A program made the translations under genes and the position numbers. From assembly GCA_963768055.1 (NCBI GenBank), contig CAVYGN010000001.1, positions 64,001 through 128,000 on the forward strand: a stretch of 64,000 bases of DNA, given 5' to 3'. The DNA is from an uncultured Spirochaetota bacterium (GTDB lineage Bacteria; Spirochaetota; Brevinematia; Brevinematales; JAOACQ01). Positions 46,610-54,974 of the stretch are shown here, piece after piece. Under the pieces are notes generated by a model. That model ran no database searches. It saw only the letters and a list, made by a program, of their open reading frames with translations, and was not told the origin of the DNA. Every line of letters begins with the position of its first letter. Within the stretch, counting starts at the first letter, position 1.

Positions 46610-48151
46610 CTATTGAAAGTAATAGCTGCCGTCCCTGGTCATTTCAGACCCTTCTTCTGAAATTTCAAACAGGGTGTCCTGTTTATCCTTTCCTTCATTT
46701 TCCATCCAGCTTTTGAATAGTTTGGGATCGGTTATTTTTGCCGATATTGCTCTTTCACAGACTTTATTAAAGTATTCTTCTTTCGAGAATGTTTCCATTA
46801 CACTTAAGAACCCCAGGGCCCTCCGGCAATTCAGATTAGCATGAACAGCAAGGATTTGAAAGATCAACTGGTATGCGGCTTCTCCGTATTTCCTCGACTG
46901 GTCTAATAAATACTTGGGGTATCCCCCGGATAGCATCTCCCTTGTATTCTCCGGAAAATCAGTCTTTTCATATGCTGCATGTCCTCTTGGTACGACAAAT
47001 TCCCGGATAAGTTTGTACTGGAAGAAGATCTTCACTAAATTGCCGGTTCTCCTGACAAAGACTTCCTCTCCACGATACCTGGGAGGCAGGGAATACCTCT
47101 TTTTCTCGAACTGGACAAATTGGTCCGGGTGTACCTTGGCCTTTTTCCATACGGGAGTCTTAAACCTTTCTTCAGGAAGCTTCTTAAGCAGGGGCTTCTC
47201 TATCGTTTCAAATACCTCTATTGGTTTCAAACCTGTTGTTCCATGGTTCCTCATCCCGTATTCATACCTGCACCATTCCAGAGCTTTGATGTTTAATTCC
47301 TTTAACGAGGCTCCGGGATTAAGGGCTTTAAGTTTTCTGAAAAGCTCTCTGGCAACAGGGACCATTCTCTCTATCTTGGCTTTATCCTTTGGTTTCCTTA
47401 CCCTGCAAGGATCAAGAAAAGTATTGTAATACTCCGCATAATCAGCATATGCCTGATTATATTTAGGATCGTAAAGGTCCGGTGATATGATGCCGGTTTT
47501 CAGATTGTCCAGGGATATTCTTACAGGCACACCGCCGTAAAACTCCAGCATATCCACATTGCTTTCAACGAATGATTCCTGGTTTTGTGAATAGACATAT
47601 TGAACAAATGGCAGCCTTGAACTCGACATTATTCCGATAAAAGACTGCACGATCTTGTTGTGCCCCAGGTATTCCATTGTGCCGGCCCTGCCGTAGTCAA
47701 GCTGGATCTCCTGACCAGGGTTAGTTTCAATCCGGATGGTTTCCTTTAATTCTTTAGCTGTAAGGCCGCTCTTTATCGAGAATCTCTTGAAACTTGTATA
47801 GCTTATGTCCAGATTATGCCTTATACAGACAACTTCAAAGGCTGTCTTGGGTTTCATTCCGTTTTTCGGGTCATTTATGAGCCCGTACAGCTCATCTTTA
47901 TATCGTTCAAGTATGCTTGCCTTATTTTCATTTTTTGGAGGCCCTACAAAGGGGCGTTTCAGATGGAATTCTTCCCGGCTTATTGTTTCTCCCGCCTTTT
48001 CAAAGCCGTAATCGATAATTTTTTGAATCGCTAGTCGGACTGTTTTCCTATCCCTGTTTTCCTGTTCGGAAATTTCACTTATGCTTTGATCGGCTTTCCA
48101 TCGTCTGTAAATGTCATAGTAATCCTGTTCGTTCATAAATCTGTACCCCAT
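46610..48151 (-). CDS. istA: IS21 transposase IstA
   Basis: ETNPGQEIQLDYG, DNLKT and KDKAKIER (DDE) motifs. Confidence 0.95.
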   Translation of the reverse strand: MGYRFMNEQDYYDIYRRWKADQSISEISEQENRDRKTVRLAIQKIIDYGFEKAGETISREEFHLKRPFVGPPKNENKASILERYKDELYGLINDPKNGMKPKTAFEVVCIRHNLDISYTSFKRFSIKSGLTAKELKETIRIETNPGQEIQLDYGRAGTMEYLGHNKIVQSFIGIMSSSRLPFVQYVYSQNQESFVESNVDMLEFYGGVPVRISLDNLKTGIISPDLYDPKYNQAYADYAEYYNTFLDPCRVRKPKDKAKIERMVPVARELFRKLKALNPGASLKELNIKALEWCRYEYGMRNHGTTGLKPIEVFETIEKPLLKKLPEERFKTPVWKKAKVHPDQFVQFEKKRYSLPPRYRGEEVFVRRTGNLVKIFFQYKLIREFVVPRGHAAYEKTDFPENTREMLSGGYPKYLLDQSRKYGEAAYQLIFQILAVHANLNCRRALGFLSVMETFSKEEYFNKVCERAISAKITDPKLFKSWMENEGKDKQDTLFEISEEGSEMTRDGSYYFQ

Positions 48152-51317: not shown

Positions 51318-52241
51318 TTATCTGAACCTGGCCCTCTCATCCAGGGGGATAAGTAAAATCACTATCCTTCTGTTTTGGGCCTTCCCTTCCTCGGTATCGT
51401 TCGAAGCAACCGGATTATACTCGCCGTACCCGGTCGCTTTTAACAGGGTGGGATCGATACCCTGGCTTTGCAGATAACGAACGATCGTTGTCGCCCTTGC
51501 AGTGGAAAGTTCCCAGTTTGATGGAAATTTCCACCGATAGCCAGGAGCTATCGGAACATTATCAGTATAACCCTCAATGCGGATCTGTTTATTTGTAATA
51601 CTTTTTAATACCTTTGCCACTTTATCAAGGGTTCTCTTACCGCTGTTTTTAATGTCGGCGCTGCCCGAATCGAAGAAAATTTTATCCTGGAAATCTACGC
51701 TTAACATGTCGCCCATTTGCTTGATTTTTAAATCTCCGCTAGCAATTTCTATCTGCATAGCTGCTTCGAGTTTATTATGGGTTTCAGTAATGTTGGATAT
51801 TTCCTGGTTTTTTTCCTGAAGAAGCTTTGCCTGCTCTGCCGATAGGGATTTGATCGTCTTTTGCAGATCATTTATTTGTCCATCCCTATTGCTTATCTCA
51901 TTTTGCAAATATGATTTCTTTAGATTGTTGTCTTTAATGGACTCATTCAAACTGTCAATTTGCTTTCCCAGTGCGCTTTTCGTCGAGTCTACAAGATTCT
52001 TTAAAGCGATATTATCATTTGAGTATATTGCAGCCTGCTTCTGAAGACTATCCCTCTGATCCTGAAGGGAAGCTATATCGTTTTTCCGTTGATTCAGATC
52101 GTTCGCCAGATTCTGGTTTTCTGCCGTCAGATTATCGTTATCCGCCTTTAACTTGGCAAACTCTTCAGGTTTTATAGATGAACAACTGCCCAGAATTATA
52201 AGTAAAGATGAAAGTGATGCGAGCCATAAAAATTGTTTCAT
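51318..52241 (-). CDS. OmpA/MotB-domain lipoprotein with coiled coil
   Basis: LGSC lipobox; FFDSGSA, EGYTDNVPI, NWELSTARA and NRRI motifs. Confidence 0.9.
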   Translation of the reverse strand: MKQFLWLASLSSLLIILGSCSSIKPEEFAKLKADNDNLTAENQNLANDLNQRKNDIASLQDQRDSLQKQAAIYSNDNIALKNLVDSTKSALGKQIDSLNESIKDNNLKKSYLQNEISNRDGQINDLQKTIKSLSAEQAKLLQEKNQEISNITETHNKLEAAMQIEIASGDLKIKQMGDMLSVDFQDKIFFDSGSADIKNSGKRTLDKVAKVLKSITNKQIRIEGYTDNVPIAPGYRWKFPSNWELSTARATTIVRYLQSQGIDPTLLKATGYGEYNPVASNDTEEGKAQNRRIVILLIPLDERARFR

Positions 52242-52377: not shown

Positions 52378-52635
52378 TTGGCATTATTTACCGAATGAAT
52401 CGACCATCTTTATTAATTCATTTTTATTCTTTGAACCTGTTTTCTGATAAATATGATAAACATGTGTTTCGACGGTTTTATTCGAGATGAAAAGCTTGTC
52501 TGAAATTTCCTTATAACTGTATCTTTGTACCAGAAGTTCAAGTATATCGCATTCCCTTTTCGATATTTTATGTTTTTCAGCAAATTCTTTAATGGGGGTA
52601 ACAACATCATAGCTGTAACCAGGGGCAAAGTAGCT

Positions 52636-52795
52636 CTATATTGGGAATTTCTTAATAACTTCATTATATTTCTCTTGAGCCTCGACTATAGAAAGTTTTG
52701 AATATATCTCGAGCGTCTTTCGGCTCTCATGTCCGCTATAAGGTTGTATCAAAGCATCATCAATACCTTGCTTTTTGAGCCATGTGAAAAGGAAA
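52636..52795 (-). pseudogene. 3' fragment of a tyrosine recombinase (TnpI-like resolvase)
   Basis: [35 protein letters not shown] with the GH...Y catalytic region; stop codon abuts the IR. Confidence 0.8.
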
Positions 52796-52876
52796 GCCCG
52801 TGGATTGAAACTGGAAAGACACATATTCTATCGCCGCCCCCATCGTCGGGCCCCACGCGGGCCCGTGGATTGAAAC
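52796..52876 (+). CRISPR. type I-C-like CRISPR mini-array (half repeat, 33-nt spacer, full repeat)
   Basis: GCCCGTGGATTGAAAC (52796-52811); spacer TGGAAAGACACATATTCTATCGCCGCCCCCATC; 32-nt hairpin repeat GTCGGGCCCCACGCGGGCCCGTGGATTGAAAC (52845-52876). Confidence 0.85.
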
Positions 52877-54261
52877 CATTAAGGTAATCCGAATGTTTAA
52901 TTCACGGAACATAAAAAAATCATCCGGTAGATTAATTGAAAGCTACTTTGCCCCTGGTTACAGCTATGATGTTGTTACCCCTAATGGGCAGTCCGGGCTC
53001 TTCCTTTATTTTTCCGGGCACTGTGATATATAGATAATAAGTATTAACGATAGTAAACAATAATATTCCATAACCGAGGGTATCCTGCTGGCCGATAAAT
53101 AAGACTGTCAGGCTGATCGTATAAATTTTATTCTGGATAATATAAATCAGATATGAAAATAGCAGGATTGAAGAGCTCAATAAAAACACAATGGATTTCA
53201 ATCGGTCTTTTTTAATAAAATAAGCTGAAATAAATATATTGAATGCCAGGCCGGCCAATAATAAAATGTAATAAATCGATAGAATGTAATTAAGCGATAC
53301 CCAGTTAACCGGTAAGGTTAATGATATGATTATTAGTATAAAAACAGCGGAAATGATCCTGAAGATAGCCCTGCTTTGACTTTTAAAAAAAAGATATATG
53401 AACAGGGCGTTTATAAGGAACAGTTTTGCATAAAGTAAAATTATTTGTATTTTAATAAGCAAATCGGCTGAAATATCCGAAAGAAAATTAAGAGTTTCTC
53501 CCCTGCCGACTAAATTCAGGGCCTGGATAAATGCAAATAAACTCAGTATCAAAAAAGCGTAATTTTTCCTGTTCCCGAGCAGTAAGAGTAAATTAAAGAT
53601 AAAAATCAGCAATAGCGCCCCGTCTATAATGCCTTCCCTGAATAATATCAGCCATCTATGTTCCCGGATGTCTTTTTCCAGTCCAATTAAAATAGTTTCC
53701 CTGATAATTTTGATATTCGAGTAATCAAAGATTTTTAAATATAATTTCAGCGGATTGAGATGATCCGGGACAGGCAGGATATTGCTTTTGTCGCGGTAAT
53801 TTACTTTCCACCTTGCGATGTAATTATAACCGTTTGAAAGTCCTATGTTATCGTTGATCCAGAAATAATAGGGGGAGAGGAGCGGAGGTATTAATAATGC
53901 TATGCTGTCCGCTTGATTCGAAGAAGACCCTTTTTCCGGGAGGATAATTTTTATATAAAACTCAGCGGAATCGTTTTCTTTATCATAATATGACGGATTA
54001 AGATCTTGATCAGGCCCGTCGGATATTTTAACTATCCCGTCTTTATTGAAGTCCCAGTGAGACAGGTCGAGCGTCCCTTTTTCAATAAAGGGCATTGTAT
54101 CAGCACTGGCGTTCCCGCAGAAAATCATAAGAACTAAAATAAAAGATAACTTAAATAATCCCATTTGAACCCGTCTGATTTTATCCCATAAGTAATCGAT
54201 CTATTTTAAAGAGTATGAATGGATTAATCAAATGTGTTCAGATATTGTAATATATAAAAGA

Positions 54262-54305: not shown

Positions 54306-54974
54306 TTATTTAAATTTCGCCCTGGTATCCAGAGGGACCAATTGGACTTCTATTCTTCTATTCTGGGCCTTTCCTTCAGGTGTTGCATTCGAGGCGACCG
54401 GGTTGAATTTTCCGTATCCGGCCGACTTGATCATATCCGGTTTAATCCCCTTTTCAACAAGATACCTCACTACTGCATCAGCCCTCGCGGTTGAAAGCTC
54501 CCAGTTGGATGGAAATTTCCACTGGTATGCCGTGGCTATAGGTACATCGTCGGTGTACCCTTCAACCCGTATAAGCCTATCATTGATAGGTACAAGAGTT
54601 TTAACGATATCGTCAAGGGCTTTTTTCCCCTCCGGCTTAATGACATCGCTTCCTTCATCGAAGAAAATATCGCTTAAAAATGTGACTTTTACACTGTTTT
54701 GCAGAGCGGTGATCGTCGATTCCTTTGCCGCTAGCTGGTCCTGAAGGTCTTTTATAAGATTGCTGTAACTTGAAGCATCGGATCCCTTCGGCTGGTTTGA
54801 AAGCTGCGATGACAGGCTCGCTATCTTTTCGTTCAACGCGTCGATCTGCTTGTCCTTTGCGCTTAACTGGTCCTTAAGACCGGCTGTCTCGTCGGGTTTA
54901 GTGCTTTGCTGTGCGCAGCTGAACAAAAAGAATAATCCTGCAGATAACGCAAATATCTGGATTTTACTTTTCAT
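54306..54974 (-). CDS. OmpA/MotB-domain lipoprotein (paralog of 51318-52241)
   Basis: LFSC lipobox; EGYTDDVPI, WKFPSNWELSTARA and GKAQNRRI shared with the paralog. Confidence 0.9.
   Translation of the reverse strand: MKSKIQIFALSAGLFFLFSCAQQSTKPDETAGLKDQLSAKDKQIDALNEKIASLSSQLSNQPKGSDASSYSNLIKDLQDQLAAKESTITALQNSVKVTFLSDIFFDEGSDVIKPEGKKALDDIVKTLVPINDRLIRVEGYTDDVPIATAYQWKFPSNWELSTARADAVVRYLVEKGIKPDMIKSAGYGKFNPVASNATPEGKAQNRRIEVQLVPLDTRAKFK

Follow-up and report, generated by a model that had tools for sequence, protein, structure and literature searches.

A miniature element in a Spirochaetota regulator gene, probably a deletion remnant of a CRISPR-carrying Tn3-family transposon

How does a fragment of a type I-C CRISPR (clustered and regularly interspaced short palindromic repeats) array come to lie between transposon ends inside a regulator gene? 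The question is raised by a 387-bp element in the genome of an uncultured Spirochaetota bacterium (assembly GCA_963768055.1), at positions 52595–52981 of a 64,000-nt stretch of contig CAVYGN010000001.1 (positions 64,001–128,000), the whole of which is referred to as the window. We conclude that the element is probably a deletion remnant of a CRISPR-carrying Tn3-family transposon and that its CRISPR piece is inert. This degree of confidence applies to the identity of the remnant and the inertness of the piece, and the route by which the remnant arose is graded separately below. Coordinates without a contig name refer to the window, and C2 denotes a contig of the same genome. From left to right, the element and its borders read as follows.

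52590–52594, no strand: left copy of the target-site duplication, TAATG; the alignment to a paralogue of the interrupted gene resumes across the element plus one TAATG.
52595–52635, plus strand: inverted repeat (IR) at the tnpI end, 41 bp, the IR_R of the parent, with outer end GGGG, starting GGGGTAAC.
52636–52795, minus strand: what remains of the 3′ end of tnpI, a tyrosine recombinase gene: the stop codon, the last 52 codons and 1 nt.
52796–52811, plus strand: last 16 nt, the 3′ half, of a type I-C repeat, with the end ...TGGATTGAAAC kept and the hairpin gone.
52812–52844, plus strand: spacer, 33 nt, absent from the resident arrays.
52845–52876, plus strand: full type I-C repeat, 32 nt, ending GGATTGAAAC.
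52877–52940, plus strand: array trailer, 64 nt, identical to the trailer of array B on C2.
52941–52981, minus strand: inverted repeat at the cargo end, 41 bp, the IR_L of the parent, identical to the single IR at C2:1591411–1591451.
52982–52986, no strand: right copy of the target-site duplication, TAATG.

A first-pass annotation, made by a model from the letters, had described the IRs, the TAATG copies, the recombinase tail, the half repeat, the spacer, the full repeat and the trailer, and every one of these features proved to lie where it had been placed. The two IRs (52595–52635 and 52941–52981) start with GGGG and match over 41 bp without a mismatch, and the inverted match continues to 48 nt at 94% identity (52595–52642 against 52934–52981). 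A perfect inverted pair of this length cannot arise by chance. When up to ten substitutions are allowed, the 41-mer occurs three times in the 3.69-Mb genome, as the two arms and as one copy on C2. On the minus strand, the stop codon of the recombinase tail (52636–52638) abuts the IR, and the 52 codons (52639–52794) read FLFTWLKK...KKFPI. The junction between tnpI and the CRISPR repeat falls at 52795/52796, where base 52795 is still compatible with the His codon that precedes FLFTW in relatives. The 16-nt half repeat is identical to the final 16 nt of the full repeat in the element. With the 52-codon tnpI tail as its only coding sequence, the element has no transposase of its own and is non-autonomous; together with IRs in the range of ~38–48 bp, an outer GGGG and a 5-bp duplication, this gives it the features of Tn3 membership.

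Two parts of one gene border the element.

52402–52594, minus strand: C-terminal part of the interrupted gene (LuxR/GerE helix-turn-helix, Pfam PF00196), severed from its start.
52987–54164, minus strand: first 392 codons of the interrupted gene, for the N-terminal membrane sensor part (7TMR-DISM, Pfam PF07695).

A paralogue on C2 (2540–3703; a 463-aa open frame, 69% identical) shows how the two parts belong together: its residues 1–393 align with window positions 54170–52992, and its residues 396–459 align with 52593–52402. The frames of the two gene halves differ as predicted by an insertion of 392 bp (387 + 5), and a minus-strand open reading frame (ORF; 52932–54164) reads from the flank into the element. 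The paralogue alignment and the 392-bp shift of frame thus indicate a genuine insertion, and by this comparison the element precisely splits a 7TMR-DISM/LuxR sensor–regulator gene. Intact relatives of the regulator, 458–515 aa in length, occur in all four of the other genomes of the genus that were searched. The target duplication inside the broken gene is hard evidence that Tn3-type transposition carried array sequence between its IRs. That CRISPR–Cas truly moved as Tn3 cargo is rather likely.

The origin of the left end can be followed through the tnpI tail. The homology of the tail begins directly after a conserved HKLRH box that precedes it in relatives, and the remnant lacks the first catalytic Arg and the HxxR box, with most catalytic residues gone; it therefore cannot be active. 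The genome contains no paralogue of the 52-residue tail. Relatives of the tail were confirmed in 380 of 603 candidate stretches from species-representative genomes, and the locus statistics given here cover the best 76 loci (L041–L116) of more than 380 relatives. These 76 loci come from Clostridium, Paenibacillus, Brevibacillus, Desulfosporosinus, Legionella, Rickettsiales and others. Within them, the last 52 TnpI residues are 77–96% identical to the tail in amino acids, a conservation across distant phyla, although the DNA identity does not exceed 80%, the value of the closest relative. An IR ending ...ACCCC or ...ACCCG lies within ~10 nt after the tnpI stop codon in 45 of the 76 loci; read from the outside inward, it has the form GGGGTA...AGCTG...ACC...GCAAA and matches the IR of the element at 33 of 41 positions at most. 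In the DNA examined, the opposite IR was found in 18 of these 45 loci, giving element sizes of 3869 bp to 9.8 kb, and the 5-bp duplications are identical in 12 of the 16 complete relatives with both flanks available. The minimal relative (L045; 3869 bp, a whole contig) consists of an IR, a tnpA gene for 983 aa, a tnpI gene for 237 aa and an IR. Its TnpA scores 796 bits on the NCBIfam model NF033527 'Tn3 family transposase' (cut-off 500) and also matches PF01526, and its TnpI is a recombinase of the Phage_integrase family. The gene order in this lineage is tnpA and then tnpI, the tnpI stop codon abuts IR_R, and larger members carry their cargo between IR_L and tnpA. By homology, the left end of the element is thus shown to belong to a widespread Tn3-family lineage with the layout IR–tnpA–tnpI–IR. 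The Tn3 derivation, which had first been drawn from the GGGG ends and the 5-bp duplication, is confirmed by these relatives, in which IRs of the same kind follow tnpI, flank an NF033527 transposase and, in the proportion given above, are bordered by 5-bp duplications.

We compared this lineage with the known TnpI elements; here and below, papers are cited for the part of each text that was available. Tn4430, Tn5401 and TnBth4 share with it a Tn3-family DDE transposase, a small tyrosine recombinase, GGGG IRs and 5-bp duplications (PMC7157771). The tnpI gene of these three elements precedes tnpA in the same direction and is itself preceded by irs (PMC7157771), whereas tnpA comes first in the lineage of the element and the stop codon of tnpI abuts IR_R. 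Tn4430 and Tn5401 had been named earlier as Tn3 members that resolve with a tyrosine recombinase; the tyrosine recombinase here is indeed of the element's own resolvase type, but the gene order of those elements does not apply, since the order in the lineage is tnpA–tnpI. The available text of the same survey lists three TnpI elements among 190, all of them tnpI-first (PMC7157771), in contrast to at least 380 loci of the tnpA–tnpI lineage in species-representative genomes.

The right end of the element matches a type I-C locus resident on C2 (locus B). Inward from the third IR copy (C2:1591411–1591451), the order is the 64-nt trailer, a 13-repeat array (array B), a leader, cas2, cas1 and cas4. 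C2:1591411–1591547, which spans the terminal repeat, the trailer and the IR, and the corresponding part of the element are identical at 137 of 137 positions. The repeat is a 32-nt palindrome ending ATTGAAAC and is linked to I-C cas genes in this genome. The full repeat of the element is identical to the two trailer-proximal repeats of array B, to which the GGGCCC variant is restricted within that array, and this comparison with the host arrays bears out the earlier reading of the repeat as type I-C. The GGGG end of the C2 IR points away from array B, and the array therefore lies inside the transposon. As an alternative, the resident IR was considered as the mark of a transposon inserted beside the array; the outward-facing GGGG end rules this out. 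The 64-nt trailer shows no similarity to the IR_L-proximal 300 nt of the 18 complete relatives of the tnpA–tnpI lineage.

What is left of the resident parent spans C2:1591411–1594822 and amounts to an orphan adaptation module with its array, in which spacers 8 and 9 are duplicates. Upstream of cas4, locus B is cut by a classical Tn3 element (serine resolvase, 988-aa TnpA, HigBA genes and IRs GGGGTCGGCTCACG...TAAG), and the rest of the parent is gone. The 5-mers flanking this Tn3 element do not match each other, and the ~340 bp upstream of the resident cas4 hold no clear cas7 remnant (best E = 0.6). The first-pass annotation had proposed as parent a larger CRISPR-carrying Tn3 transposon, possibly with a whole I-C locus. 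The array part of this proposal is upheld by the 137 bp identical to the end of array B, but the whole I-C effector set is not, as only cas4–cas1–cas2 and the array survive at the resident copy.

In the origin that we propose, the parent would have been laid out as IR_L–(cargo)–tnpA–tnpI–IR_R, with the cargo between IR_L and tnpA. The cargo would have been a type I-C locus in the order IR_L–trailer–array–leader–cas2–cas1–cas4..., with tnpA on the other strand. Insertion into the 7TMR-DISM/LuxR gene by a Tn3-type transposase would have produced the TAATG duplication, and all else would have been lost in a single deletion that began midway through the penultimate CRISPR repeat and ended at codon −52 of tnpI. 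With tnpI reading rightwards, the miniature element has the order IR_L–trailer–repeat–spacer–half repeat, followed directly by the tnpI tail and IR_R. This orientation fits what a single simple deletion would be expected to leave, and the cargo position in the relatives agrees with it. The earlier view of the element as an internal-deletion derivative is thus supported at both ends, by a tnpI tail of the IR–tnpA–tnpI–IR lineage on the left and by the 137 bp identical to the end of array B on the right.

Four observations weigh against this origin or its details. First, the spacer of the element differs from the terminal spacer of array B (B12); the C2 copy of today can therefore have been the direct donor only if array B later lost a spacer at its trailer end. 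Such a loss from the C2 array would reconcile the mismatch, and variation of this kind exists in a contig of run X1, which is without B12. Second, the effector genes (cas3, cas5, cas8c and cas7) are missing from locus B, where only cas4–cas1–cas2 and the array are left. Third, a full-length parent was not found, the first 24 nt of the IR giving no exact match in genome_contigs and metagenome_contigs. Finally, miniature inverted-repeat elements derived from Tn3 (TIMEs) are mobilized in trans, in experiments, with a frequency similar to that of autonomous elements (PMC4133298). Regarding the spacers themselves, the trailer end of array B varies in sediment metagenomes: run X1 joins spacer B11 to the terminal repeat, and runs X3 and X4 have B12. 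The spacer of the element and B12 share TAT(C/T)GCCGCCC in their 3′ halves in nearly the same register, with unrelated 5′ halves, which may be due to chance (by a rough estimate, 1 in a few hundred) or may be a trace of related protospacers.

Two routes from the parent to the element were weighed. In the route that we favour, with little more than even confidence, the full-length parent inserted first and the deletion took place afterwards at the site. It is favoured because there is only one copy, because no transposase in the genome has cognate IRs and because the parent could resolve cointegrates itself. Replicative Tn3-family transposition makes cointegrates, and their resolution needs the element's own resolvase and a res site. 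The miniature element has neither a resolvase nor a recognizable res site, and we infer that it would depend on host recombination for its cointegrates, which is the reason for preferring the full-length parent on this point. When the whole element was searched in 60 relatives, no copy was found, and only the CRISPR repeats matched, in 6 of the 60. None of the four Tn3 tnpA genes of the genome has matching IRs, an absence that is not proof in an assembly that is 94.75% complete.

On the other route, which we hold only tentatively, the deletion came first in a donor copy, and the 387-bp unit was then mobilized in trans as a TIME by a cognate TnpA that has since been lost or was left unassembled. 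The perfect IRs and duplication agree with this, and so does the mismatch between the terminal spacers of the element and of the resident array, which a different donor copy would lead one to expect. TIMEs of 262 bp and their larger derivatives do transpose in trans with 5-bp duplications and are usually single-copy (PMC4133298). However, the element occurs once, with no further copy in the 60 relatives or, by the 24-nt IR word, in genome_contigs or metagenome_contigs, and the four tnpA genes of the genome have other IRs, the closest being that of element A (described below), at ~19 of 39 positions by hand count. The lack of a resolvase and of a recognizable res site, which would leave cointegrates to host recombination, counts against this route as well. 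The earlier claim that the 387-bp unit itself moved as a miniature transposon is consequently not sustained: the element is single-copy, the assembly holds no cognate transposase and a deletion in place fits equally. Like TIMEs, the element is non-autonomous, with Tn3-family IRs (~38–40 bp in TIMEs), 5-bp duplications and no transposase, and the likeness extends to the usual single copy and to Tn3-family parents (PMC4133298). Classical TIMEs form a conserved ~262-bp Pseudomonas family whose mobilization is proven by experiment (PMC4133298), whereas the miniature element is a one-off deletion product from another Tn3 lineage, in which remnants of both parent ends are recognizable. It is best filed as a TIME-like deletion remnant.

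What an intact CRISPR-carrying version looks like is displayed by element A, a 12.3-kb unit at C2:1562894–1575168 with perfect 43-bp IRs (1562894–1562936 and 1575126–1575168). Its order is a 5-repeat I-C array, cas2, cas1, cas4, cas7, cas8c (Csd1), cas5, cas3, a recombinase gene and tnpA. The full adaptation module is present, and cas3 has both the HD and the helicase domains. The recombinase is of the tyrosine type (245 aa). The TnpA (1004 aa; 903 bits on NF033527) ends 7 nt before the IR and is 65% identical to the TnpAs of the tnpA–tnpI lineage. The IRs of element A and of the miniature element agree at ~19 of 39 aligned positions (hand count), with an inner AAAGTAG in common, and their CRISPR repeats agree at 26 of 32 nt, the last 12 nt, which form the 5′ handle of the CRISPR RNA (crRNA), being the same. 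A third, diverged IR (30 of 38 positions) lies between cas3 and the recombinase gene; it seems that a 3.9-kb core transposon acquired a further end on the far side of the array, in a composite-like manner. The ends have no matching 5-bp duplication, and the right flank is another, truncated tnpA. The five bases outside the two ends are mutual reverse complements (TTGTA/TACAA). Judged by its ends and gene content, element A is an intact-looking CRISPR-carrying Tn3-family element.

We also compared the relatives of the Cas proteins with those of the transposase. Two genomes of the same family encode Cas1 proteins with 79% and 75% identity to that of locus B. A locus in one of these two genomes matches element A with 75% identity in Cas3, 81% in Cas5, 63% in Cas8c and 87% in Cas7. 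The best database relatives of Cas8c (57–63%) include metagenome-assembled genomes of Spirochaetes/Spirochaetota among the few named matches. No Tn3 transposase or recombinase lies beside the loci of the same-family relatives in the DNA examined, and no transposon IR follows the array in the one of these genomes in which the array end was read (G006). In the host phylum, few genomes have the transposase lineage: apart from this genome (G000), only 2 of 400 sampled genomes match, at 36–37% identity. Since the Cas proteins are host-family-like and the transposase lineage is rare in the phylum, the transposons look foreign and the CRISPR loci local. These similarities point to a capture of CRISPR by the transposon in the host lineage. 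The nine Cas proteins of this genome, used as tblastn queries, gave no match at E ≤ 1e-5, and hence no cas gene, in 76 genome loci that surround tnpI relatives (the best-scoring of more than 380) or in 80 metagenome loci (764 kb; the best-scoring of more than 566) that surround relatives of the element A transposase. The 80 metagenome loci, which are the set scanned for arrays, also contain no CRISPR array by an exact-repeat scan.

The CRISPR piece might still act, and the first-pass annotation had suggested that it could deliver a guide RNA to the host Cascade or serve as a single-repeat decoy. A functional mini-array, transcribed as a guide for the Cascade of element A against a competitor or offering its full repeat as a decoy like an RNA anti-CRISPR (Racr), is improbable. 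Repeats of array B have the same sequence as the full repeat, which shares 26 of 32 nt, including the last 12 nt, with the repeat of system A; the genome has a complete cas3–cas5–cas8c–cas7 set in element A, and such roles are known for mini-arrays and solitary repeats of mobile elements (PMC11656645). From these similarities, loading of a crRNA from the mini-array repeat by system A is conceivable. However, the 387 bp contain no leader, and in place of an array of at least two full repeats with a leader there are one full repeat and a 16-nt partial one. Promoter-like sites are at chance level (5, against 4.7 ± 2.5 in shuffles), and the neighbouring genes all lie on the strand opposite to the CRISPR piece. 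In I-C biology, Cas5d needs the repeat hairpin for cutting, and the upstream repeat has lost its hairpin. The half repeat is predicted to pair with the 5′ arm of the full repeat and so to compete with its hairpin; the fold of 52780–52945 (−41.5 kcal/mol, z = −1.2) is no more stable than those of shuffles. A search of Rfam gave nothing relevant, its single hit (E = 0.33) being an unrelated long non-coding RNA model.

A protospacer was not found in any of the sets searched. The genome itself gave only self matches, the best match in 50,697 phage records was 21 nt long (E = 1), and IMG/VR gave no exact 24-mer match. Among 72,556 plasmid records, the best match was 26 nt at 92% identity (E = 0.07), in a gene for a major facilitator superfamily (MFS) transporter. 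This plasmid match was considered as a protospacer and, with these values, was taken as chance. Finally, the CRISPR piece is exactly what one deletion at the trailer end of an array would leave. The suggested roles in guide delivery or as a decoy thus find no backing in the leader, the promoter signal, the protospacer searches or the upstream repeat. As far as can be judged from the DNA, the miniature element is most likely an inert relic, and all that it is likely to do is to inactivate the regulator gene. In a broader idea, tnpA–tnpI Tn3 transposons, two of them in this genome, would be vehicles for nuclease-proficient I-C systems and would shed miniature derivatives that bring a repeat–spacer–repeat unit to new sites, as a guide or decoy for the Cascade of the sister transposon. 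Of this idea, the movement of CRISPR–Cas as Tn3 cargo is rather likely, as stated above, and the functional mini-array is quite unlikely.

Other mobile elements with CRISPR sequences differ from the remnant in several ways. CRISPR-associated transposons (CASTs; Tn7-like and Mu-like) likewise carry CRISPR–Cas between transposon ends, with the array near one end (PMC11656645). They use machinery of the TnsB/TnsC/TniQ type and interference-defective effectors that guide transposition (PMC11656645), whereas the transposase here is of the Tn3 family and the I-C systems keep the HD domain of cas3 (element A) and cas1–cas2–cas4. No TnsB, TnsC or TniQ gene was found by Pfam around both CRISPR loci, where the only such genes are those of Tn3-type transposases and tyrosine or serine recombinases. 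With the HD domain of cas3 and cas1–cas2–cas4 kept, the CRISPR–Cas system is therefore ordinary cargo and not a targeting device. The mini-arrays of viruses and solitary-repeat RNA anti-CRISPRs share with the miniature element one or two host-identical repeats on a mobile element (PMC6858448, PMC10651486, PMC11656645). Those systems are expressed, and their spacers match competing viruses (PMC11656645). In contrast, the miniature element has no promoter signal above chance, no target that was found and a truncated upstream repeat, and one deletion explains the piece.

In the literature searched, supplements aside, we found no description of CRISPR–Cas as the cargo of a Tn3-family (copy-in, replicative) transposon and none of a Tn3-derived miniature element with CRISPR repeats, in agreement with the earlier statement that no CRISPR-carrying Tn3 miniature inverted-repeat transposable element was known to have been described. 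The word 'CRISPR' does not occur in the available text of the Tn3 survey (PMC7157771), and 'Tn3' does not occur in that of the 2024 review on CRISPR in mobile elements (PMC11656645). The value of the element is that of a marker, left by a Tn3-family transposon that carried and moved type I-C CRISPR sequence. If this is general, it would provide a simple route for CRISPR–Cas between replicons and a source of orphan arrays and stray repeats.

Public reads bear on the assembly of the locus. A separately assembled 290-nt contig of run X1, which may be the source sample, spans the left junction (52407–52696) with 0 differences. In four public runs, no contig bridges the right junction, and none matched 52697–52844 or 52986–53193. 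One contig of run X2 (443 nt) matches the left flank at 98%, but its alignment stops at 52596 and only 7 further letters follow, where 31 are needed to count; its end fits an empty site in a related strain, the 7 letters being far below that number. It is very improbable that the element is an assembly chimera or chance similarity, with the array end of C2 joined in silico to an unrelated transposon end: although 52697–52844 and the right junction are spanned by no contig of the four runs and the genome (94.75% complete, 2 contigs) may be a metagenome-type assembly, a misjoin creates neither a 5-bp direct duplication nor an exact frame-consistent gene split, the X1 contig crosses the left junction without a difference and the spacer of the element occurs nowhere else in the genome.

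The remaining observations concern other parts of C2 and of the window. The four Tn3-family transposase matches in the genome all lie within C2:1555–1602 kb, which is a transposon nest. Two classical Tn3-family elements lie here (C2:1555410–1560244 and 1594822–1602203), with a serine resolvase and toxin–antitoxin-like genes beside the resolvase, Gp49-like in one and HigB/HTH (helix-turn-helix) in the other. The element at C2:1594822–1602203 has unequal flanking 5-mers and a first-type IR copy near its left end. Solitary IRs of the element A type lie at C2:1161478–1161515 and 1678521–1678558, with no partner or transposase within 12–15 kb. The second of these is a hybrid, in which the inner 18 nt resemble the IR of the miniature element and the outer part the IR of element A. 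In the window, genes for OmpA-domain coiled-coil proteins (PF00691) lie on both sides of the interrupted regulator (51318–52241 and 54306–54974, minus strand). At a distance of ~4.4 kb from the element, a 513-aa ORF (46610–48151, minus strand) carries a C-terminal Mu-transposase domain (PF22483) and probably encodes the transposase of a different insertion sequence.

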